64,000 bases of DNA from a bacterium (GCA_002919195.1 PKEU01000149.1:8130-72129); one strand, 5' to 3'. Positions 7,698-60,637 are shown, counted from the stretch's first letter. The notes: a model not told the origin generated them from the sequence alone. A program made the numbers and translations.

Positions 7698-9980
7698 TTA
7701 GAGCAGAATAGAGACTTCGTCCCGGTCCATCCGCTCGATGCAGCGGGAGAGCTTGGCCACAAGGGCTTCATCTTGGCGGGCCGCCTGGCGCACTTGCCGC
7801 AAGACGTCGATGGCCCGGCGAAACGCGAAGACGATGTCGCCTTCGTCGACGCCACTGGCGGCCACCACCTCGCTAAACGACGCTCCCTGGCTCCAAAGGG
7901 ACGCCGCCTCGGCCAGCTGGTCGTAAAAGTCCGTCTGGGAGTAGCCCAGGTACAACCGTTCCATCCTGGAGATCAAGTCGACAGCCCGCATCACGACGCC
8001 CACGTCAAATGCGCGGTGCCGGCGGCGCTCCTCCCCTTTGCGAGGCTCGTAATCCATCGAGGCTGCCAGGGCGTTGATCTCATCCTCGCTCCAGTCGTGA
8101 AAGACGCCGCGAAAGAAGAGCTCGGTCACCAAGAGCTCGCTGCCGTTGATCTCCGCTGCAAAGATCCCCCGGGCGGTAAGCTCGCCGTCGCGCACGTAGT
8201 CGAGGGCCTCAAGCAGCGCCAGCTTCTCTTCAAACTCCCGGATAAACGCGTCGTCGCTGGGCAGCTCGTCCAGGGCGCGCTCCACCCGTTCGATGCGCGC
8301 CCGGATCCGGCGGTACTCCTTCGCCACGGGCTGGAATCGGGCCCGCACCCGCTCACTGCACCCGGCGGCCTCGAGCTTTTTGAGCGCCCGCCGGTGGGCG
8401 CCGATCTCGCGCCGAAGCTGCTTGATCCCTTTGCGGTCTCCCGCATCTTTCCTCCGTTTCAGCCGGTCGTTGAGGCGAGCGAGGGCCTTCTCTTGCTCCA
8501 GGGCTTCCAACGCAAGCTCAGCTTCGCGCAGGCTCAGCTCGCCGAGGAGGGCGGTCCGCGCTTCTTCGAGCCGGGAGAGCTCTGCACGGTACCGCCTTCT
8601 TGCCTGCTCCTGCTGGAAGCTCGCAAAATTGCGGCGCAGGATCGACTCGATCTGGGGCCGGTCGTAGCTCTTGACCAAATTGAGGACCGTGTTGTACGAC
8701 AGGGTAAACCGGCTTTCGATGGGCTCCACTTGGTCCTCGCGCATCGAGGGGAACTCCCTCGGGTTGAAAAAGTTGAAGTCCACCGCGGTAAAGACGTACC
8801 CCTTCTCGTCGATGCCCCGGCGCCCCGCTCGGCCCGCCATCTGGAAGTACTCCCGGTTAGTCAGCGCGCGAAACTGCCTGCCGTCCCACTTGGTGACGGA
8901 GTCGAAACAGACGGTGCGGCAAGGGAAGTTGAGCCCCACCGCAAAGGTCTCGGTGCAGTAGAGGAGCCGGATCAACCGGCGCTCAAAAAGCTCCTCCACC
9001 ACGTCCTTGACGATCGGCAAGAGCCCCGCGTGGTGATAAGCGATCCCCCTCTTGAGGAGCGGTTCGATCTCTCTCACGCTCCGCTCGCCCGCCCCGTCGT
9101 ACCGCTCGATGGCCCGGGCGATCACCTCGTCCACCTCTTGTTGTTCTTGGACCGAGAGCCATTGGCTCTCGTGAGCGGCCTCCCGGGCGTTGATCTCGCA
9201 CTTTCGGCGTGAGAAGGTGAAAAAGAGGCAGGGCAAAAGGTCGGGAGAGATATGCCGCACCAGCTCCAAATGGTGGGTGGGCTCAAATTCGGCCGCGACG
9301 GTTCCCGACTGGGTAGTGCCAAAGCGCGCCGCGTACCTGCGGTACCGCTTTTCCAGCTGCTTATACGTACACTCACCCAACGAGTGTTCGTACAGGTGGT
9401 GCTCCAAGGGCACGGCCCGGACGTGGTGGGTGATGACCCGGACCGGACGGCCGTGGATTTCACTGATCCAGCGGGCCAGCTCATCGATGTTGGGAATGGT
9501 GGCGGAAAGTCCCAAAAACCGCATCTCGGGCGGCATAAAGATCAGGCTCTCTTCCCAGACGCTCCCCCGGACCGGATCGTCGATATAGTGAATTTCGTCA
9601 AAGATGACGTGGCTCGTACCTGCCAGGCGGTCCCGGTCGGTGTGCAAGAGGTTGCGAAAGATCTCCGTCGTCATGATGAGGATGGGCGCCTGCGGATTGA
9701 TGACCACGTCGCCGGTCAAAATCCCGACGTTTTCCTCGCCCAGGTGTGCCTTGAACTCCTTAAACTTCTGGTTGCTCAGCGCTTTGATCGGCGCCGTATA
9801 CACCACCTGGCGGCCTGCCTTAAAGGCCATTTCGGTGAGGTAATCGGCGATGAGCGTCTTGCCCGTGCCTGTCGGCGCGGAAACCAAGACCGAATCTCCC
9901 GCCTCCAAGGCCCTGATGGCGTCTCGTTGAAAATCGTCGAGCGTGTATCCCCGGTATGTGATGAACTCCTGGCGCAACAC
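7698..9980 (-). CDS. DEAD/DEAH-box helicase of Ski2/HelY type (DSHCT-like C-terminus, coiled-coil arch insertion)
   Basis: 760 aa. Walker A SAPTGTGKT, DEIH box, SAT, QMAGRAGRRG (motif VI). A long R/E/L-rich coiled-coil insertion (res. ~460-560). C-terminal region resembling the Ski2/Mtr4 DSHCT domain. Confidence 0.85.
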   Translation of the reverse strand: MLRQEFITYRGYTLDDFQRDAIRALEAGDSVLVSAPTGTGKTLIADYLTEMAFKAGRQVVYTAPIKALSNQKFKEFKAHLGEENVGILTGDVVINPQAPILIMTTEIFRNLLHTDRDRLAGTSHVIFDEIHYIDDPVRGSVWEESLIFMPPEMRFLGLSATIPNIDELARWISEIHGRPVRVITHHVRAVPLEHHLYEHSLGECTYKQLEKRYRRYAARFGTTQSGTVAAEFEPTHHLELVRHISPDLLPCLFFTFSRRKCEINAREAAHESQWLSVQEQQEVDEVIARAIERYDGAGERSVREIEPLLKRGIAYHHAGLLPIVKDVVEELFERRLIRLLYCTETFAVGLNFPCRTVCFDSVTKWDGRQFRALTNREYFQMAGRAGRRGIDEKGYVFTAVDFNFFNPREFPSMREDQVEPIESRFTLSYNTVLNLVKSYDRPQIESILRRNFASFQQEQARRRYRAELSRLEEARTALLGELSLREAELALEALEQEKALARLNDRLKRRKDAGDRKGIKQLRREIGAHRRALKKLEAAGCSERVRARFQPVAKEYRRIRARIERVERALDELPSDDAFIREFEEKLALLEALDYVRDGELTARGIFAAEINGSELLVTELFFRGVFHDWSEDEINALAASMDYEPRKGEERRRHRAFDVGVVMRAVDLISRMERLYLGYSQTDFYDQLAEAASLWSQGASFSEVVAASGVDEGDIVFAFRRAIDVLRQVRQAARQDEALVAKLSRCIERMDRDEVSILL

Positions 9981-10020
9981 GACGGACAGACACTCCTTTA
10001 GACGCAGGCCTTTTCCCGAC

Positions 10021-10485
10021 CTACTCCCGCGCGTTGTGGGCGATCCGGGCGCAGGCAGCCGCGACGATGGCCGCCAAGAGGTCGTCGAGGAATGTGTTCA
10101 CCTGCTGGGCCTCGTCGAGTTCGACCAGGATCTTGGGGCGCTCCACGCCGAGATAGCCAAAATTGGACAGGCTGATCGAACCGTAGATATTGATGATGGA
10201 AAAGGCGAGCACCTCATCGATCGCAAAAAGGCGGTCGTTTTCCCTGACAATCTCTCCCAAGGGCTCCTTGAGCGTGCCCTCTTCAGCCATCATGTCGAGG
10301 GTGATCCCGGTGATCACGGCGTGCTGGACTTCCCTCTTGGCCAAGACCTGCCTCACGCTCTCCCTGCACTTGTCGAGGGTGAGGGAAGAATCGTAGGGTT
10401 TTTGCAGCTCCAACACCAGCTCGGCCAGCGCGTCGAGGTCGACGCCTCGCTGCTCCAGCAACTCAACGGCGATGTTTCTCACGAT
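10021..10485 (-). CDS. pgpA: phosphatidylglycerophosphatase A
   Basis: PgpA-like pattern (SIVRNIAVELLEQRGV..., ...FGYLGVERPKILVELDEAQQ). Start set at GTG 10485 with GGAGG 8 nt upstream; the track ORF extends to 10623. Confidence 0.7.
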   Translation of the reverse strand: MVRNIAVELLEQRGVDLDALAELVLELQKPYDSSLTLDKCRESVRQVLAKREVQHAVITGITLDMMAEEGTLKEPLGEIVRENDRLFAIDEVLAFSIINIYGSISLSNFGYLGVERPKILVELDEAQQVNTFLDDLLAAIVAAACARIAHNARE

Positions 10486-10844
10486 GGATCCATCTCCTCG
10501 GGGACGTCCCGCAAGCGAGACGCTTTGGGCGTCCAGCGGTTTTGATCGCGCCGGCGGTACTTCTCCATCACCGCCCGAAAGGCTTCGCCCAAGTCGATCC
10601 CCAGGGAGTTGGCAAAAGCGCAAAGGATGAAGAGGATATCGCCCATCTCCAAAGCCAAGTCGCTTTCAGCCTCGCCCGGCTTCTTGGGCTTTTCGCCGAA
10701 GCGGTGGTTCACTTCCCGGGCGAGTTCACCCACCTCTTCGGTGAGGCGGGCGAGCATGGACAGGGGCTTCCAGTACCCTTCTTGAAATTGGGAGATCCAC
10801 TGGTCGACCTCCCGCTGCATCGATTTGATGTCCATCGCGCTCAC
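10479..10844 (-). CDS. MazG-type nucleotide pyrophosphohydrolase domain protein
   Basis: 121 aa; EEVGELAREV ... E/D-rich metal-binding helix pattern of the MazG/YpjD family. Confidence 0.7.
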   Translation of the reverse strand: MSAMDIKSMQREVDQWISQFQEGYWKPLSMLARLTEEVGELAREVNHRFGEKPKKPGEAESDLALEMGDILFILCAFANSLGIDLGEAFRAVMEKYRRRDQNRWTPKASRLRDVPEEMDPS

Positions 10845-10909
10845 AAGCCTTTACCTGTTAGACTACTCACCCAACGCGGCCCCTGATATACTGGGGGCGA
10901 GGTGTCACC

Positions 10910-12067
10910 ATGTCCCAAGGCCACCGACTCAAAGATGAGCTGAAATCCTACGCCCGCTCGATCGGCGTGCATCACCTGGCGGTCGGCGAGGCGGCGCCCT
11001 TTGGCCGAGAGGCCGAGCTTCTTGAGGCCATGCGCTCTCAAGGAACGTATCCGGCCTTTACCGACACCGACATCGAGCGGCGGACCCGGCCTGGGCGTTG
11101 GCTCCCCGACGCCAAGAGCATCATCGCCATCGCCGTGTCGTACCTGACCGACGACGATCACCACCCGCCCCGCCAGGGCGTCCTGCGGGGCATCGTCTCC
11201 CGCTATGCCTGGGGCCGGGACTACCATCCGATCCTCCGCGAAAAGCTTGAGGCCATAGCCGCCTTCCTCGCCCAGCGCGTCGATCATCCCGTCCGCTTCG
11301 TCCCTTACGTAGACACCGGACCGCCCGTCGACAGGGCTGTGGCAGTTCGCTCGGGGATTGGCTGGTACGGGAAAAACGCTTGTGTCTACACGCCCCGGTA
11401 CGGCTCGTACATCTTTTTGGCGCAAGTGGTCACCAACGTCGAGTTAGAGCCCGACCCCCCGATCAGCCGCTCGTGCGGCCCCTGCGACCGGTGTATCCGG
11501 GCATGTCCCACCGGCGCCATCGAAAGGCCCTTTTGGGTCAATCCCGCGAAGTGCCTTTCCTACATTACCCAAATGCCAGGCATGATCCCCAAAGAGTATC
11601 GCAAGGCCATGGGGCGCCGCCTTTGGGGATGCGACGTCTGCCAGATCGTCTGCCCGTGGAACTGGGAGGCCGAAGCGGCCGGCGATGACGCCTTCCGGCC
11701 CAGCCCGGAGCTCACCGCCCGCCCTGCGCTGATCCCTCTCCTCACCATGACCAACTCGCAGTTCCGCCGGTGGTTTGGCCCCACCGCCATGAGCTGGCGA
11801 GGGAAAAAGATCATCCAACGCAACGCGTGCATCTGCCTTGGCAACATCGGCGACCCCGAAGCCGTCCCCGCTCTAGAGGATCGCCTGTTGCACGACGCGA
11901 AGCCCGAAGTCCGGGCCAGCGCCGCTTGGGCCCTAGGCCAAATCAGCGACGACCGCTCCTTGCGTGCCCTCGAGCGGGCCCGCAGGGCCGAAAGCCACCC
12001 CATGGTGCTCGAGGAGATCGACGACGCGATGGCAGAAGCGGTCCAAAAGAGCACGCCCTCCCCTTGA
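10910..12067 (+). CDS. queG: epoxyqueuosine reductase
   Basis: 385 aa. 4Fe-4S ferredoxin motifs (CGPCDRCIRACPTGA, CDVCQIVCPW), a QueG-type N-terminal domain and C-terminal HEAT-like repeats. GAGGTG SD 6 nt upstream. Confidence 0.85.
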   Translation: MSQGHRLKDELKSYARSIGVHHLAVGEAAPFGREAELLEAMRSQGTYPAFTDTDIERRTRPGRWLPDAKSIIAIAVSYLTDDDHHPPRQGVLRGIVSRYAWGRDYHPILREKLEAIAAFLAQRVDHPVRFVPYVDTGPPVDRAVAVRSGIGWYGKNACVYTPRYGSYIFLAQVVTNVELEPDPPISRSCGPCDRCIRACPTGAIERPFWVNPAKCLSYITQMPGMIPKEYRKAMGRRLWGCDVCQIVCPWNWEAEAAGDDAFRPSPELTARPALIPLLTMTNSQFRRWFGPTAMSWRGKKIIQRNACICLGNIGDPEAVPALEDRLLHDAKPEVRASAAWALGQISDDRSLRALERARRAESHPMVLEEIDDAMAEAVQKSTPSP

Positions 12068-54462: not shown

Positions 54463-54617
54463 AGCGACTGCCTCCCAACGGCCTCGAGTCTTAAGCCGTC
54501 AACCCGAGGTCATTTGCACGTTTGACACCACCCGATTCGTTGCTTCGCATAGGATTCCCTGCCCCCGACCTCGAAGCGTCCTTTCTATGTGTACTCTTGA
54601 TCGGGTGGGATCCGCGC

Positions 54618-55559
54618 ATGCAGATTGCCTACATCGTCAATCCAATCGCTGGTTCCGGCCGGGCCCAAAGGGTCTGGGCCAAGCTCGCGGCAAGACATCC
54701 CCACGTCGCCGAACATGCGCATTTCACCCGTGGTCCAGGCCACGGGGAAGAGATCGCTGCCCAGTTGGCGGAGGAGGGATGCGAAGCCGTGGTCGCGGTG
54801 GGCGGTGATGGCACCCTCCACGAGGTGCTCAACGGGGTGCTCCGGGCCACGTCGAAGCCCTGCGTTGGGGTCATTCCCGCCGGGACCGGCAACGACTTCG
54901 CCCGCAGCGTCTCGCTTCCGAGAGATCCCGAAAAAGCGCTCGAGGTCTGCCAGCGCGGCCAAGCGGAGCCCATTGACGTCGGCTTGGTCAACGGCAGGGC
55001 GTACATCAACGTCGCCGGGTTTGGCTTTGACGCCGCCGTCGCCGAAGAAGTGGCGAGCCGGTCCAACAAAGGAGCGACGGGCCCCATACCCTATTTGATG
55101 GCTGTCTTTCACCAGCTCGTCACTTTTCGCCCCCGCCAGCTTTCGATCCACATGGACGATCAAGTGATCGAGGCGCCGGTCCTCTTTGGCGCGGTAGGAA
55201 ACGGCTCGACCTACGGCGGGGGCATGAAAATCTGCCCGCGCGCCCGGGTGGACGACGGCCTCCTCGACCTGTGCGTCGCAGGCGACTTTGGACCTTTCGA
55301 AACCCTGGTCAACCTCCTCAAAGTGTTTCGCGGGTCGCACGTGACCCATCCCAAGTGTCAATACTTCCGGGCGCAGCGGGTCGTCGTCGACGGCGACCCT
55401 TCGGTGCGGGTCCACGCGGACGGGCAGCTCTTGGGCGGCTTGCCCGTCACATTTGAAATCCTCCCGCAAGCCGTCCGTTTCTTGATGGGCCCCGCATTCC
55501 AGCGGAGCCAAGAGGAGACTCGAAAAGAGTCAGAAAGGGATTTCCGGCTCCACGCCTAG
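54618..55559 (+). CDS. diacylglycerol/lipid kinase family protein (DagK/YegS/BmrU-like)
   Basis: Start ATG 54618 (MQIAYIVNPIAGSGRA). GGDGT motif (VAVGGDGTLHEV) of the DAGK catalytic domain. Confidence 0.75.
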   Translation: MQIAYIVNPIAGSGRAQRVWAKLAARHPHVAEHAHFTRGPGHGEEIAAQLAEEGCEAVVAVGGDGTLHEVLNGVLRATSKPCVGVIPAGTGNDFARSVSLPRDPEKALEVCQRGQAEPIDVGLVNGRAYINVAGFGFDAAVAEEVASRSNKGATGPIPYLMAVFHQLVTFRPRQLSIHMDDQVIEAPVLFGAVGNGSTYGGGMKICPRARVDDGLLDLCVAGDFGPFETLVNLLKVFRGSHVTHPKCQYFRAQRVVVDGDPSVRVHADGQLLGGLPVTFEILPQAVRFLMGPAFQRSQEETRKESERDFRLHA

Positions 55560-57269
55560 TCGCTCTAAGCTCGCCTCAAGGCATGCGACGTACTCCGGCG
55601 AGAGCAGCCCCCGAGCGCCGTCCAAGATCAACCCGGCATACTCGTCGGAAGGACGAATATCCTTCGGCGCTTTGTTGACCACCGTGTACGTCAGCACGGG
55701 TTCGAAGCGCACCCCCAGCGCTTCGACGTTGACCCATTCCCGCTGGTAGTGGCCGAGTGAGACGCCTTCCCGCTCGTCGAGCTCAGGCAGGTGGGCCCTG
55801 GAGATGCGATAGAGGATTCCCCTCACTTCGCCGCCCTGTTCAGGGACGATATCGGCCACGCCGCCTCCCCGGACCGCCGACCGGTGCGTAAAGCCGAGCC
55901 GGTAACCTTTGAGCACCGCTTCGCCGATGAGTTCAAATTTGGGAATCGTCTCCCGAAAGCTCGGCCGCGACATGCACGAACCGTAAGAAAAATACAGGAG
56001 GGTGCGCGGCCTCAGCCGCCTTTGCAGCGGGACGAGCTTGCCATCGCGGGTCAGCCTCCAAAGCAGCTCGACGGCGGACTCCCACTCGAGGCCAAACTCA
56101 ACGCTCAAACGCAACGCCATCTCCGCGAGCGTGCGTTCGCCGTCCGCCAAGGCGAAAAGGCGCTCTGAAAGCCCTCGCGAAAGCCCCGCAAGCCGCGGCC
56201 AAGCGCACGGCTGCTCCCGGCTGGTCATCGCCACGTAGTAGGCGTTGGGCAGGAACGATCGCCGTTCACCCAAAGGGGGAGGCCAGCGCCACGCACCGCC
56301 GGCTCTCAACCGGTCGCCGATCTCCCCAAACCTCCCGATTGCAGGGGGATTCACCTGCCGCCAGGCCGCCTCCAACTCCCGGCACCAGCCTGCGACCTCC
56401 TCCTCGGCGTCCGCGCCGGCGCCGAGAAGGCTCGCCAGCGGCCACAGACCTTGCAGAAAGGCTTCGACGACCATCGACTCGACTGCCTCTTTCGCCAGCA
56501 CGTCCGTAAGGGGATGCGCCTCGCTCTTTTTCCGGAGAAGGCCGGGAGCAGAGTGGAGGAACCAGCCGAGGATGGCAACGACCCCATCGATACCGGCGAA
56601 GCGCCACCAAAGCGCGGCCGCAAGCAACACCTCAGCCGCCGCGAGCTCCCCCCTCGATCCAGCACAGGCGACGCGCACCCTTCCGAGCGGTGGCACCCAT
56701 TGCGCTTTGGCATCCGCGGTGCGCTGGGCAAAAAAAGCGAGGACGGGAGCGAGGATGCCCCCGGTTTCTAAGTGCACCCCGCCCTCCTTTGGAAAAGATA
56801 CCTCCACCCTCTGCGCGTGAGAGAGGTTGTACCACCCTGGGGGGAAACGCGGCGAGATTGGCTCTTCTTCGCCGAGGAGAAACCGGACGGACCGGCGGGG
56901 ACGGGCTCCCGGATCCTTGGGGCGAGCAATCCGGTGAAAAGCGCTTGCCACCTTGAGCCACCAACGGAGCCCCAAAGCGGCCGTCCGGCGGGTGTGAAAG
57001 GGCACAGAAATCGAGGCGATCAAGTCGCTGAAGGACGCGGGCAGGAGCCACCGGGCTTCAAGCCAAAGGCGCGGGACCGCCCGGTCGCGCCGGAACCCGC
57101 CTCCAGCCCACACCGTCTTTCGAATCGGGAGGCTCCTCTCCCGGCATCGGTCGACCAATTGACAAAACGCTTCGCTCACCGGCGCGCCGCCCTCCAGCGA
57201 GAAGACCTCCTCGTGTTGCGCTTGGGCGAGCGACGATACGGCGTGGGCCAGGAAGTCCAGGGTGCACAC
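55530..57269 (-). CDS. multidomain protein: unassigned N-terminal ~340 aa + PqqD-like (RiPP-recognition-element-like) domain + gamma-glutamylcyclotransferase (GGCT/AIG2)-like C-terminal domain
   Basis: PqqD-like stretch LSRGLSERLFALADGERTLAEMALRLSVEFGLEWESAVELLWRLTRDGKLV. C-terminal LLYFSYGSCM...GEAVLKGYRLGF...YRI... resembles the GGCT/AIG2 fold (YGS motif, catalytic Glu region). 30-bp convergent overlap with the dagK 3' end. Confidence 0.5.
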   Translation of the reverse strand: MCTLDFLAHAVSSLAQAQHEEVFSLEGGAPVSEAFCQLVDRCRERSLPIRKTVWAGGGFRRDRAVPRLWLEARWLLPASFSDLIASISVPFHTRRTAALGLRWWLKVASAFHRIARPKDPGARPRRSVRFLLGEEEPISPRFPPGWYNLSHAQRVEVSFPKEGGVHLETGGILAPVLAFFAQRTADAKAQWVPPLGRVRVACAGSRGELAAAEVLLAAALWWRFAGIDGVVAILGWFLHSAPGLLRKKSEAHPLTDVLAKEAVESMVVEAFLQGLWPLASLLGAGADAEEEVAGWCRELEAAWRQVNPPAIGRFGEIGDRLRAGGAWRWPPPLGERRSFLPNAYYVAMTSREQPCAWPRLAGLSRGLSERLFALADGERTLAEMALRLSVEFGLEWESAVELLWRLTRDGKLVPLQRRLRPRTLLYFSYGSCMSRPSFRETIPKFELIGEAVLKGYRLGFTHRSAVRGGGVADIVPEQGGEVRGILYRISRAHLPELDEREGVSLGHYQREWVNVEALGVRFEPVLTYTVVNKAPKDIRPSDEYAGLILDGARGLLSPEYVACLEASLERLGVEPEIPF

Positions 57270-57336
57270 CCCCCAAGGGATACCTCTACTCTTTGCTATG
57301 TCCCAAGGGGGGCGCGCGTTCTATTCGAGGCTAGCT

Positions 57337-58341
57337 CTAGAGAGGGAGTTCGATAGGACGGCCTTCTTGATGGGATCGGGTCGCAGCTTCCATCAGCTCG
57401 GTCAGATCCCGGCCGTCTTGCAAAGAGATCTTGGGAGGCACACCCTCCTCGATCGCCGCAAGCCACTGGGAAAGAGGCGACGGATCCGCCTCAGGCAGCC
57501 GTGCAGGACGGATCCAGCCGTCGATCTTGCCTTGACCTGCCCGCGTGCGCACCCATACCCCGTCGTCGGGTCCGCCGACGAGGATCGCCCCTTCAGTCCC
57601 GTACACTTCCAGCGCAAAGGGGCTGTAGGTCGACACGAAGGAACTCTCGACGACCCCGAGCACCCCGCTTTCAAACTCGATGATGACCACTGAGTTATCA
57701 TCGACCTCGTACCGGTCGAAAAAGCGGGTAAAGCGGGCCGTCACCTTTTTGGGCTTACCGCCGATCCAGCGGGCCAAGTACATGGGATGGCATCCCAAGT
57801 CGATCATCGCGCCCCCGCCGCAAGCGACGGGGTCGAAGAAGTGAGGCGGCAGCCACCCATCGGATGCGCCGTTGTGGGCCATGCGGGTGCGCACCGACGT
57901 GACCTGGCCGATCAGGCCCTCGTCCGCCGCTTGCTTGGCATATTTGAAGCGCGGCTGTCCCCGAAAGGGAAACGATACGACAAAGTGGACACCCGCCTCC
58001 GCCGCCGCCCGTCCGATGCGGTCCACCTCTTCCACCGTCAGCGCGACGACTTTCTCCGTAAAGACGTGCCGGCGAGCGCGCAAAGCCGCCAGGATCACTT
58101 CGGTGTGCATCCGCGTCGGAGCGTCGACCACCACACCGTCGACGTCATCCCGAGAGACGGCCTTTTCCAAATCGGGCTCAAAAGGGACGCCCAGTTTTTC
58201 GGCCCATTCCCGGCCCCGCGCCTCGTCCTCGTCCCAGACCACCGTGATCCGGGCGTTGGGGTGCGACTGGACTTCCCTGGCGTATCCCGGGGCGTGGACG
58301 TGCCAAAAGCTCAACATCGCGACGTTGACCATGCTGTTCAC
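57337..58341 (-). CDS. Gfo/Idh/MocA family oxidoreductase
   Basis: Rossmann N-terminus and a C-terminal GFO_IDH_MocA_C-like domain. Confidence 0.8.
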   Translation of the reverse strand: MNSMVNVAMLSFWHVHAPGYAREVQSHPNARITVVWDEDEARGREWAEKLGVPFEPDLEKAVSRDDVDGVVVDAPTRMHTEVILAALRARRHVFTEKVVALTVEEVDRIGRAAAEAGVHFVVSFPFRGQPRFKYAKQAADEGLIGQVTSVRTRMAHNGASDGWLPPHFFDPVACGGGAMIDLGCHPMYLARWIGGKPKKVTARFTRFFDRYEVDDNSVVIIEFESGVLGVVESSFVSTYSPFALEVYGTEGAILVGGPDDGVWVRTRAGQGKIDGWIRPARLPEADPSPLSQWLAAIEEGVPPKISLQDGRDLTELMEAATRSHQEGRPIELPL

Positions 58342-58357
58342 CTCATTTCAAAATCGA

Positions 58358-58828
58358 TCAGCCCGAAGAGTCCTCTACCGGCTTGATAATATGGATCCAA
58401 TACTTTCCGTCAAAGTGGTCATATCTGATATGAAATCCCGTGTACTCGCTGATGTAGGAAGCCGATTCTTTCCAACCTTCCCGCACTTCCTCTTGGGTGA
58501 GACCCCATCGCTCCACCTCTTCTTTAAAGAGCTCTTCGATGGGGACGGCTACCAAGCTCACGCCTCGCTCATCAGCGAACACCCGGAATTCGTCGTCGAG
58601 CATGGGAGTATGCTGCTGAAAATTGAGGACAAACGCCTGAAAAACCCGCTCAATGTCGCCTTTCAGCTTTTCCCACTCGGTTTGGCGCTCCATGAAAAAC
58701 CGGACAAACTCGCCCGGATCCCTGCCGATGGACTTGGCATAACCCATCGCCGCGATGATGGTTTCAAAGAGATACGTCGGCCTTTGCGTCGCGAGCTCAC
58801 GCAGCGACCGCTTTCGGATCTCAAACAT
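58358..58828 (-). CDS. hypothetical protein (156 aa, acidic)
   Basis: ORF with good coding composition in an operon context; no recognised motif. Confidence 0.45.
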   Translation of the reverse strand: MFEIRKRSLRELATQRPTYLFETIIAAMGYAKSIGRDPGEFVRFFMERQTEWEKLKGDIERVFQAFVLNFQQHTPMLDDEFRVFADERGVSLVAVPIEELFKEEVERWGLTQEEVREGWKESASYISEYTGFHIRYDHFDGKYWIHIIKPVEDSSG

Positions 58829-58840
58829 CAGCTCCCCGCC

Positions 58841-59434
58841 CTACTCTGCCGCGCCTCGAGGAGAGCCAAACTCGCTGCGCAAGCGGCCGTGAATCTCTTC
58901 GAGCTTGTCCAACATCGCAGCGCACACATCGGCCAGCTGCTCCCACCAAGGCTCTTCGGAGATCATGGGCGCCGAGGTGTTGATCTCAAAGCGAAGGCAC
59001 TCGAGCCGGGCGTCCGCCGACGTCATGCTCACCTCGGCGACGACCCCTCCGTCATCGCCGAAAAAGGCCTCGGCGTGCCGCTTGATTTCAGCCGCCACCC
59101 CGCTCATCGCCTCGGTCGAGATGGAAAGGGTGGCAAAATGCAGGTGAAAGGCGGCGTTCATCATCACTTCAGCATCGGGATCTAGAGGCATGTCGGGATC
59201 GTAAACGTCGCCCTGCTCATGAATTTCTTCAAAGAGGGCCTGGTTTGCCGCCACCCACTCGAAGCTCACTTTCCCCCAGACCTCTCCTGGCTCGTCGTCA
59301 TGGTGGATCAACAGCTCGCAGCCGCGGGAGTTTGTCCCCAAAAAGACAGCTTCATCAATCGAGACTTGGAGCCCCTTGGACGTAATCGCGTCCACAAGGG
59401 TGTCTCGAAAACCTGCATAATCCAGCACATGCAC
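58841..59434 (-). CDS. hypothetical protein (197 aa, acidic)
   Basis: ORF with coding composition, tightly packed between neighbours; no recognised motif. Confidence 0.45.
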   Translation of the reverse strand: MHVLDYAGFRDTLVDAITSKGLQVSIDEAVFLGTNSRGCELLIHHDDEPGEVWGKVSFEWVAANQALFEEIHEQGDVYDPDMPLDPDAEVMMNAAFHLHFATLSISTEAMSGVAAEIKRHAEAFFGDDGGVVAEVSMTSADARLECLRFEINTSAPMISEEPWWEQLADVCAAMLDKLEEIHGRLRSEFGSPRGAAE

Positions 59435-59452
59435 GGTCTTGACACTCCCATC

Positions 59453-60637
59453 TCATCCGAAACAGTTGCCACGTGAGAGTTCCCCTCCTGGCCTTTGACT
59501 CCTGCGATCTGTATCGCGGGAGCGGCTGCAAATCGTCGCCAATGCCTGGGCCAGCGCCCTGGGCGCGCTGATGACCCCCTTGCCCTGAGCCTCCGGCAAG
59601 AGGCCGCGGAGGGGCTCGGCGCCTCGGAGAAGTGCCTCCCGCAACCACGCGCCGGCACGGTCCCCAGAAAAACGGGCTGCAGCCAGCAACAGCGCCGCCA
59701 CGCCGGCAACATGCGGAGCCGCCATCGAGGTTCCGTCGAGCCGCCGGTAACCGTCGCGAAGCCAAGTCGAATAGATATCTTTCCCAGGCGCAACGACGTC
59801 CAGTCCTGCACCGCGGCTCGAAAACGAAGCGACACCGCCGGACGGATCGCACGCGCCCACCGCCAGCGCGCTCTCGTAAGCAGCGGGATACTCCAGCGTT
59901 TGGGGGCTCGGGCCTGAGTTGCCCGCGGCAGCCACCACCAGGACACCCGCGGCCGCCGCTTGATCGACGGCCTTTTTGAGCAGAGGATGAGGCACGGGCG
60001 TTCCCAGGCTGAGGTTGGCGATGGGTGCGCCCTTTTTGACGCACCAGTCGAGCCCATCAATGATGTCAGACAGGCGGCCGGAACCGTCGTCGCCTAGCAC
60101 TTTCACCGCCAAGAGGGAGGCCTTCGGAGCCACTCCGTAAACTCCGCCCGGAACACCGCACCCTGCGACGATACCCGCCACGTGGGTACCGTGACCGTTG
60201 TGGTCCTCATCGCTGCCTCCCACCGCGTTATACACAGCGCGAAGCCTCGGCGCAAGATCAGGGTGATCGAAGCTGATCCCCGTATCAAGAATCGCGACCG
60301 CCACGTCTTCACCCCGGGTGAGCCGCCAGATCTGGGGCGCCCCGATCCGCCGCACACCCCAGGGGACGACACCGCAACACTGCTCGACGCGCAAGGGCCT
60401 CCAAGGCCGTGCGACGACCGCGCCAATGGCCCGGACGGGAATGTCGTCCTCGATCCCTTCCACGCCATGGCGACGCCCGAGCAGCGAGCACCGCTCTTGA
60501 TCCAATCCCTCCACGACGAGGGCGCGGATCAGCGACAGCCTCTTGACCACCCGGCCGCCCAAGCGGACGACGGCCCTGCAACACTCCTCCTCGACTGCTT
60601 CCGGCGCGAGGATGACAAGGTTCCTTTGCGGCCTCAC
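59453..60637 (-). CDS. S8 family subtilisin-like serine peptidase with N-terminal I9 inhibitor/propeptide domain, no signal peptide
   Basis: Catalytic triad motifs ILDTGI (Asp), HGTHVAG (His), GTSMAAPHVAG (Ser). I9-like N-terminal ~70 aa. GTG start with GAGGAGG 8 nt upstream. The N-terminus is not hydrophobic. Confidence 0.8.
   Translation of the reverse strand: MRPQRNLVILAPEAVEEECCRAVVRLGGRVVKRLSLIRALVVEGLDQERCSLLGRRHGVEGIEDDIPVRAIGAVVARPWRPLRVEQCCGVVPWGVRRIGAPQIWRLTRGEDVAVAILDTGISFDHPDLAPRLRAVYNAVGGSDEDHNGHGTHVAGIVAGCGVPGGVYGVAPKASLLAVKVLGDDGSGRLSDIIDGLDWCVKKGAPIANLSLGTPVPHPLLKKAVDQAAAAGVLVVAAAGNSGPSPQTLEYPAAYESALAVGACDPSGGVASFSSRGAGLDVVAPGKDIYSTWLRDGYRRLDGTSMAAPHVAGVAALLLAAARFSGDRAGAWLREALLRGAEPLRGLLPEAQGKGVISAPRALAQALATICSRSRDTDRRSQRPGGELSRGNCFG

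Follow-up and report, generated by a model that had tools for sequence, protein, structure and literature searches.

In a bacterial DNA stretch of 64,000 nucleotides (GCA_002919195.1 PKEU01000149.1:8130-72129, referred to as the window), five co-directional genes occupy positions 55530-60637 of the minus strand. From the distal to the proximal end they encode a protein of 579 amino acids (aa) with a C-terminal gamma-glutamylcyclotransferase (GGCT) domain, a Gfo/Idh/MocA-family oxidoreductase, two acidic orphan proteins of 156 and 197 aa, and a subtilase of peptidase family S8. The open reading frames (ORFs) were recovered exactly where the initial annotation had placed them, and its description of the genes as uncharacterized is confirmed. 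Its reading of the five genes as one module for peptide modification or processing was not supported, as the genes are not co-conserved. The defensible core is reduced to three genes, i.e., those for the 197-aa protein, the 156-aa protein and the large GGCT protein, and the genes encoding S8, Gfo and the PHP-, GH18- and MFS-type proteins of related loci are variable neighbors. We tentatively favor, at a probability that falls somewhat short of an even chance, a composite block with a YkqA/GGCT-type cyclotransferase as its core, which carries a lineage-specific targeting or regulatory region and is accompanied by a co-inherited 156-aa partner and a usual 197-aa neighbor.

The division of the block into core and variable genes is based on 15 related loci (L001 to L015), which represent 12 distinct lineages besides that of the window, so that 13 distinct loci were compared. 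These were scored by tblastn and by precomputed Pfam calls. The 197-aa gene was the search anchor and is hence present in all 13 loci. The large GGCT protein is encoded in nine of the 13 loci and the 156-aa protein in eight, the latter exclusively in loci that also encode the GGCT protein (8/8), and all four GGCT-less loci are devoid of the 156-aa gene. By our own arithmetic, which ignores phylogeny, this co-occurrence corresponds to a Fisher probability of 9/1287 = 0.007. In L014, the set consists just of contiguous genes for proteins of 197, 157 and 604 (GGCT) residues, and in L007 the 197-aa gene adjoins the gene of a 799-aa GGCT protein in a different neighborhood, with a small acid-soluble spore protein (SASP) gene upstream and Dus downstream. 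The S8 gene was found in six of the 13 loci (window, L001, L006, L009, L010, L015) and the Gfo gene in four (window, L001, L002-4, L012). Because S8 is lacking in seven and Gfo in nine loci, both were placed outside any conserved module. A PHP phosphoesterase gene is intercalated in five loci, not including the window, and a GH18 or MFS gene on the opposite strand in four, so that the gene content between the flanks is mosaic across the 13 loci. The flanks themselves are common to most loci and comprise the CCA-adding enzyme, ParA, (SAM_HAT) and RNase H on one side and DAGK (opposite strand), FabI and NagB on the other. Therefore, the block was regarded as vertically inherited, and adjacency alone is weak evidence of a functional connection. 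The window belongs to a Limnochordia genome, and named relatives are metagenome-assembled genomes assigned to Limnochordia or "Clostridia". Limnochordia are a poorly studied, Gram-negative-staining and spore-forming class of Bacillota. Limnochorda was reported to be a spore former encoding dpaAB, other core sporulation genes and σK-dependent genes (10.1101/2022.02.25.481979).

The 579-aa protein is encoded at 55530..57269 on the minus strand, and ORF and family alignments divide it into an orphan N-terminal region (residues 1-340; 56250..57269), a small winged-helix segment with the motif DGERTLxE (residues ~360-415; 56025..56192) and a GGCT/AIG2-like catalytic domain (residues 422-570; 55560..56006). 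The assignment of the C-terminal domain to the GGCT/AIG2-like family, already made in the initial annotation, was substantiated by Pfam matches of residues 426-563 to AIG2_2 (PF13772; E 6e-12, 46.3 bits at a cut-off of 27) and GGACT (PF06094; E 4e-10, 40.7 bits at a cut-off of 22.8), by PDB profile matches to Bacillus subtilis YkqA (E 3e-23) and human GGCT (E 2e-12) and by the predicted structure, which has the GGCT fold. The loop YFSYGSCM and the motif DEREGV...Y.R are invariant or nearly so in the family, and the same holds for Y429-G430-S431-C432 and E501-G502 in 17 family members; conservation of S428 and Y429 was scored on an alignment of 12 sequences. The family motif YGSC aligns with human YGSN, and E501 aligns with the glutamate of human DEQEGV, which we take to be the catalytic E98 of human GGCT. 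With an intact YGS loop and the catalytic glutamate in place, the domain looks catalytically competent as judged from its motifs.

The architecture in which this domain is embedded is rare. In an exhaustive HMMER search of 1.84 billion representatives, 4,033 GGCT-domain proteins were retrieved at E<=0.001, and among the best 150 of these 4,033 matches the combination of N-terminal region, winged helix and GGCT domain is represented by ~10 clusters, in agreement with the initial impression of an unusual architecture. The remaining matches within these 150 cover the GGCT domain only, except for one N-terminal fragment, and the closest GGCT-only proteins among them are YkqA-like two-domain proteins of ~290 aa. 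In a word-indexed search, the 579-aa family was represented by 12 clusters, the 197-aa family by 44 and the 156-aa family by 24; the count for the 579-aa family is incomplete, as the proteins of L006, L007 and L009 were missed and recovered by the exhaustive search. Within the block, the 579-aa protein evolves fastest: its sequence identity between the window and L001 is 47%, compared to ~86% for ParA, FabI and Gfo, 79% for the 197-aa and 74% for the 156-aa protein. The divergence is located in the N-terminal ~340 residues, in which W221-W222 and the motif EE..GW.RE.E are the sole conspicuous features of a 17-sequence alignment. The proteins of the window and L007 are 51% identical in winged helix and GGCT domain, and their N-terminal regions share one weak match of 73 residues. 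No match of residues 1-340 was obtained in Pfam, NCBIfam, PADLOC, PHROGs, PDB profile or Foldseek searches. The AlphaFold2 (AF2) model of the 579-aa protein has a mean predicted local distance difference test score (pLDDT) of 61 overall and is acceptable at residues 365-414 and 422-570.

Two further proposals for the N-terminal region were rejected. An origin as a degenerate DUF4910/M28 aminopeptidase-like domain, prompted by a sub-threshold HTH_47 match and by the look of the longer L007 protein, is unsupported, as the N-terminal regions gave no DUF4910 or M28 Pfam match at E<=10 and no PDB match. The hydrophobic LWW region does not qualify as a transmembrane segment, with maximum KD19 values of 1.0-1.7 across the family. 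The L007 protein (8821-11220, 799 aa) is the most distant family member and has ~220 extra N-terminal residues, which by eye recall a PA/M28-like domain (…IVLTSGDPDRVRRLAVERYGAAGIVLDG…), with no match in Pfam or PDB.

The best-placed competing explanation, which we consider unlikely on balance, is that nothing beyond inherited synteny holds these genes together. The 579-aa protein would then be a stand-alone γ-glutamyl-dipeptide/glutathione-type salvage cyclotransferase with a lineage-specific appendage, the neighbors would be unrelated, and the 197-aa and 156-aa proteins would be unconnected to it. That nearly all loci have the same housekeeping flanks is in line with such a reading, as is the loss of each component but the anchor gene in some lineage. 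Four lineages (L008, L010, L011 and L013) have the 197-aa gene but no GGCT, the gene standing alone in L011 and L013, and many free-standing GGCT-only proteins are closely related to the domain among the best 150 of the 4,033 matches. However, synteny alone does not account for the strict co-occurrence of the 156-aa and GGCT genes (GGCT in eight of eight loci with the 156-aa gene, the 156-aa gene in none of the four loci without GGCT), for the pairing of the 197-aa and GGCT genes kept in L007 despite a changed neighborhood, or for the contiguous 197-157-GGCT arrangement in L014; moreover, a plain salvage enzyme needs no conserved extension of 420 residues.

The two acidic proteins of the core are encoded at 58358..58828 (156 aa) and 58841..59434 (197 aa), both on the minus strand. 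With isoelectric points (pI) of 5.10 and 4.36, respectively, and no family assignment in Pfam, NCBIfam, PADLOC or PHROG, both bear out the earlier description as acidic proteins that lack recognizable motifs. PDB profile searches with the two families returned chance matches only, namely Cyt1Aa (E 0.5) and Spot14 (E 0.007), the latter through an acidic stretch together with FHLHF. The 156-aa family comprises 24 clusters, all of Limnochordia type, with a mean column identity of 69%. For the 197-aa family, the mean column identity amounts to 57%, and W53, K55, E59, W60, H97, H99, E134, C146, R148 and E150 are invariant. The model of the 197-aa protein (pLDDT 87.6, predicted template modeling score 0.84) shows an α-β-β-β-α-β-β-α fold as in class I chaperones of type III secretion systems (T3SS; CesT/SicP/SycE) and in YbjN/DR_1245/AmyR. 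The identity to these proteins is 7-14%, and no CesT or YbjN family membership was detected, as there is no match in Pfam or NCBIfam at E<=1. In contrast to the T3SS chaperones and YbjN, the 197-aa protein is 50-70 residues longer, ends in a long helix and has the invariant residues H97, H99, C146, E134 and E150; secretion-system genes were not seen in the fetched loci. The predicted fold together with the small size and the low pI suggest that the 197-aa protein is a protein-binding adaptor or chaperone and not an enzyme. A mutual relationship of the 156-aa and 197-aa proteins was dismissed (hhalign probability <1%). Likewise, a LysW-like carrier role of the small acidic proteins was discarded, as their C-termini vary and do not end in an invariant glutamate.

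Conserved promoter-like elements precede two of the core genes. Upstream of the 197-aa gene, AGGAGT(C/A)-N13-GGAA(C/G) was found in eight lineages, usually followed by TCTC(A/T)CG.G.CGAC. The candidate element of the window, AGGAGTC-N13-GGAAC and then TCTCACGTGGCAACTGT (59462..59503, minus strand), has its bipartite part at 59479-59503 within the 3' tail of the S8 ORF, and the pattern matches once in the window at 0.06 matches expected. Its positions are 6843 in L001, 6881 in L002, 7881 in L005, 7264 in L006, 7932 in L009, 5920 in L014 and 5929 in L015. The length of the spacer is fixed and its sequence varies, which is the signature of a bipartite promoter. Compared to the σH consensus, AGGAwww-N14-GAAT, the element appears σH-like, and this resemblance is given as a lead. 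As the element is conserved on the S8 side of the 197-aa gene in loci with and without S8 alike, S8 was regarded as a separate unit. A second element, (G/T)AAC-N17-(C/A)ATA(G/A)CAAA, lies upstream of the 579-aa gene in the window (AAC-N17-CATAGCAAA; 57292..57320, minus strand), in L001 (9941), L002 (9950), L005 (9934), L009 (10253) and L015 (8525), again with conserved blocks and a free spacer sequence. In B. subtilis and Clostridioides difficile, mother-cell promoters share a -10 element CATA.... common to σE and σK, and AC is found in the -35 element for σK (PMC3789822). The arrangement AC-N17-CATA fits this mother-cell σK/σE pattern. SASP genes served as controls and are preceded by sequences resembling the forespore σG/σF pattern (L007 7400-7432, GTATC-N18-CATCCTA; L010 3213-3246, GTATC-N17-CATGCTA), so that sporulation promoters of this Limnochordia lineage seem to follow the Bacillus-type grammar. 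Taken as putative promoters, the elements speak for two or more sites of transcription initiation within the five-gene set and hint at stationary-phase or sporulation expression of the block.

In the composite reading favored here, the interval would be a syntenic block that is specific to Limnochordia, has been inherited vertically and consists of three or more units. The first unit would be the intracellular S8 subtilase, dispensable and lost in many lineages. The second would start at the σH-like element and comprise the 197-aa and 156-aa genes, with PHP and/or Gfo following in some lineages, and the third would be the 579-aa gene, which in the clade of the window may have its own mother-cell-σ-like AC-N17-CATA element. 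The 579-aa protein would be an active YkqA/GGCT-type enzyme; by virtue of its family membership, its C-terminal domain is expected to attack a γ-glutamyl-amine (amide) bond by intramolecular cyclization, resulting in 5-oxoproline and a free amine. The N-terminal region and the winged helix would be non-catalytic and would serve to target the enzyme or to regulate it, probably by binding to the 156-aa protein and to the acidic, chaperone-like 197-aa protein, and expression would probably occur in stationary phase or sporulation. Several points weigh against this reading. The adjacency may reflect inherited gene order, since most loci have the same flanks, and the 197-aa protein cannot be a dedicated partner, persisting as it does in four GGCT-less lineages. 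In L006, L007 and L014, the GGCT gene is not preceded by the AC-N17-CATA element, a different conserved sequence being present at this place in L006 and L014, and the sigma assignments are pattern resemblances in an organism with 62% G+C. Furthermore, neither the two small proteins nor the N-terminal region has a characterized homologue, and the poor AF2 model of the 579-aa protein permits no structural statement on residues 1-340.

A more specific assignment, which we regard as improbable, is that of a spore-envelope or germination set, in which the S8 protease would be Isp/Csp-like and the GGCT protein would act in the mother cell or the spore on γ-glutamyl isopeptides, e.g., ε-(γ-Glu)-Lys freed from cross-linked coat proteins, with the N-terminal region as a coat-targeting part. 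Rapid N-terminal divergence, as observed for the 579-aa protein, is typical of coat proteins, and SASP and GerA-type genes lie near the block in L007, L009, L010 and L014. The 579-aa gene is preceded by AC-N17-CATA, in keeping with the σK/σE pattern; transcription of the csp operon, which encodes serine proteases in C. difficile, depends on σE, and B. thuringiensis has an Isp orthologue linked to sporulation (PMC3789822). Limnochordia themselves sporulate (10.1101/2022.02.25.481979). Against such a set, S8 and GGCT are not conserved together, and the loci share no element upstream of S8, conservation there being limited to the window and L001. In addition, none of the block proteins matches a coat or germination family in Pfam or NCBIfam, and the promoter reading is purely pattern-based.

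The remaining two alternatives involve the winged-helix segment. This segment had been assigned initially to PqqD, the recognition element (RRE) of enzymes for ribosomally synthesized and post-translationally modified peptides (RiPPs), which was not upheld: PqqD (PF05402) gave no match at E<=1 on the whole 579-aa protein and none when eight winged-helix segments were searched in isolation at E<=10. The sole Pfam family touched is HTH_47 (PF16221), a winged helix located at the C-terminus of aminopeptidase-like DUF4910 proteins, which matches four of the eight segments below threshold (E 0.004-0.065; 13-17 bits at a gathering score of 27.1) over the stretch DG-x-R-x-L-x-E-I-A. In the AF2 model, the segment runs helix-strand-helix-helix-strand; distant family members do not conserve the first helix of the putative RRE, and similarity of this kind is common to many winged helices. 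In the literature, we found neither a GGCT-RRE fusion nor a function of YkqA described. Improbable as well is a protein-directed γ-glutamylcyclotransferase system in which an RRE-like winged helix and the N-terminal region would recognize a macromolecule, i.e., the 156-aa protein presented or held by the 197-aa protein, and the GGCT domain would remove γ-glutamyl groups from the protein or peptide in sporulation; if true, this would constitute a reversible protein γ-glutamylation/de-glutamylation step not described in bacteria. Least probable of all, and very unlikely, is a non-classical peptide-modification or RiPP-like module in which a PqqD/RRE domain binds a peptide or small acidic protein, GGCT removes the γ-glutamyl group and S8 processes the product, as the resemblance of the pattern L..LADGERTLAEMA... 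to PqqD and the predicted topology are set against the missing PqqD match with HTH_47 alone below threshold, the variable first helix, Foldseek results containing nothing outside GGCT, intergenic gaps of 12-67 nt that leave no room for a precursor ORF, the lack of S8 in seven of 13 loci, the promoter-like element separating S8 from the 197-aa gene, and the lack of any radical SAM, YcaO, LanB or similar enzyme within the block or any related locus fetched. The initial annotation had itself remarked that a short precursor ORF and radical SAM, LanB or YcaO enzymes are missing, which was confirmed, and a new type of peptide-modification system is not supported.

Among known systems, the C-terminal domain of B. 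subtilis YkqA (PDB 2qik, UPF0131) and human GGCT/C7orf24 (2i5t, 2pn7) are closest to the GGCT domain of the 579-aa protein. YkqA (~285 residues) and human GGCT (188 residues) both lack the N-terminal region of ~340 residues and the winged helix. The γ-glutamyl-removing enzymes of BtrG and GGACT type belong to the same AIG2-like superfamily and share the presumed chemistry, i.e., formation of 5-oxoproline and an amine. To our knowledge, no substrate has been established for YkqA or the bacterial YkqA-type GGCT enzymes. Known families account for the GGCT domain, the oxidoreductase and the protease, all of them ordinary members; the novelty lies in the GGCT architecture confined to one class and in the two conserved orphan families, one of which has a recognizable predicted fold. 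If the composite reading is right, Limnochordia carry an enzyme of the GGCT family that is joined to a large targeting region specific to the lineage and is coupled to two orphan proteins, and the co-inherited partners together with possible sporulation-phase promoters offer a handle on what YkqA-type enzymes act on. For annotation, it is advisable to keep the locus out of the RiPP-like biosynthetic clusters and to treat S8 and Gfo as independent genes.

The S8 subtilase (394 aa; 59453..60637, minus strand) matches Peptidase_S8 (PF00082) with E 4e-58 and 197 bits, with no variation in the triad motifs DTG, HGTHVAG and GTSMAAPH among four orthologues. The ORF cannot be extended upstream, and its N-terminus (MRPQRNLVILAPEAVEEE...) contains no hydrophobic signal sequence; both the N-terminal extension of ~90 residues and the absence of a signal peptide are conserved in the four orthologues. 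The enzyme had been described as a propeptide-bearing subtilisin without secretion signal, of which the S8 domain, the conserved extension and the lack of a signal peptide were verified, and the I9 nature of the propeptide was not, as Inhibitor_I9 gave no match at E<=10 on the N-terminal 104 residues. The best NCBIfam match is mycosin-like and lies below the cut-off. Residues 19 and 20 of the extension form a Cys-Cys pair that is invariant in all four orthologues, and the protein contains 10 cysteines in total. The S8 ORF as called in the window and L006 extends through the element upstream of the 197-aa gene, and the 3' tail is not conserved; the last ~25 of the 394 residues are probably non-functional read-through. 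The block S8 is similar to Isp and Csp in its catalytic domain with intact triad, its N-terminal extension and the missing signal peptide. However, compared to Csp proteins the NCBIfam matches to CspBA and CspC are partial and far below the cut-offs, and no gene for a SleC-type substrate was seen nearby. Intracellular subtilisins such as Isp and Csp are well known in spore formers, so that a cytoplasmic S8 protease is not in itself remarkable (PMC3789822).

The Gfo/Idh/MocA-family oxidoreductase (334 aa; 57337..58341, minus strand) was correctly recognized in the initial annotation, all three Pfam domains being detected (PF01408, 67.5 bits; PF22725, 110.2 bits; PF02894, 65.5 bits). Its best NCBIfam match is iolG-like at 140 bits with a cut-off of 355 and is not an equivalog. 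At the N-terminus, the usual position of the GxGxxG dinucleotide-binding loop reads VAMLSFWHVHAPGYA, and the Pfam Rossmann match starts from residue 20; the protein may thus have an atypical cofactor-binding loop.

Regarding the layout, the intergenic gaps from the 579-aa gene to the S8 gene are 67, 16, 12 and 18 nt. The G+C content at third codon positions (GC3) is 0.76 for the 579-aa ORF and 0.73 for the S8 ORF, within the range of the other genes of the window, and homologues were found for every one of the five ORFs; thus, the five-gene arrangement is not a chance feature. An Rfam scan of the whole window revealed no RNA family. At its 3' end, the 579-aa ORF overlaps by 30 nt (55530-55559) with the 3' end of the convergent DAGK/YegS-like ORF (54522-55559, plus strand), and L001, L002 and L009 show this convergent overlap in their gene calls as well. 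L004 (ena:ERZ25039577 contig_97058) corresponds to the L002/L003 locus in a copy riddled with frameshifts, in which many genes are split, and a 506-aa "homologue" from it (P0012, 33% identity) was rejected as a distant relative, being an assembly artefact.

Further genes accompany the core in the related loci. A family of ~112 aa with the motif ERARLYGQAV...RRG.(K/R)(E/D)PW(E/D)M stands in place of the 156-aa gene in the deeper-branching loci L008 (6230-6565), L010 (8870-9208) and L012 (3223-3573). It has no Pfam match, and a relationship to the 156-aa family was rejected (hhalign probability <1%). Two of these three genes lie just before the gene of the PHP-domain phosphoesterase, which was located in L001 (7991-8821), L002 (8040-8876), L005 (9025-9852), L010 (9242-10075) and L012 (3707-4534). 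In these five lineages, the PHP gene sits after the small protein gene (156 aa or ~112 aa) and before Gfo where Gfo is present; in the window, which has no PHP gene, the 156-aa and Gfo genes are separated by 16 nt. The PHP-Gfo adjacency is kept down to 40% identity of the 197-aa protein, as observed in L012.

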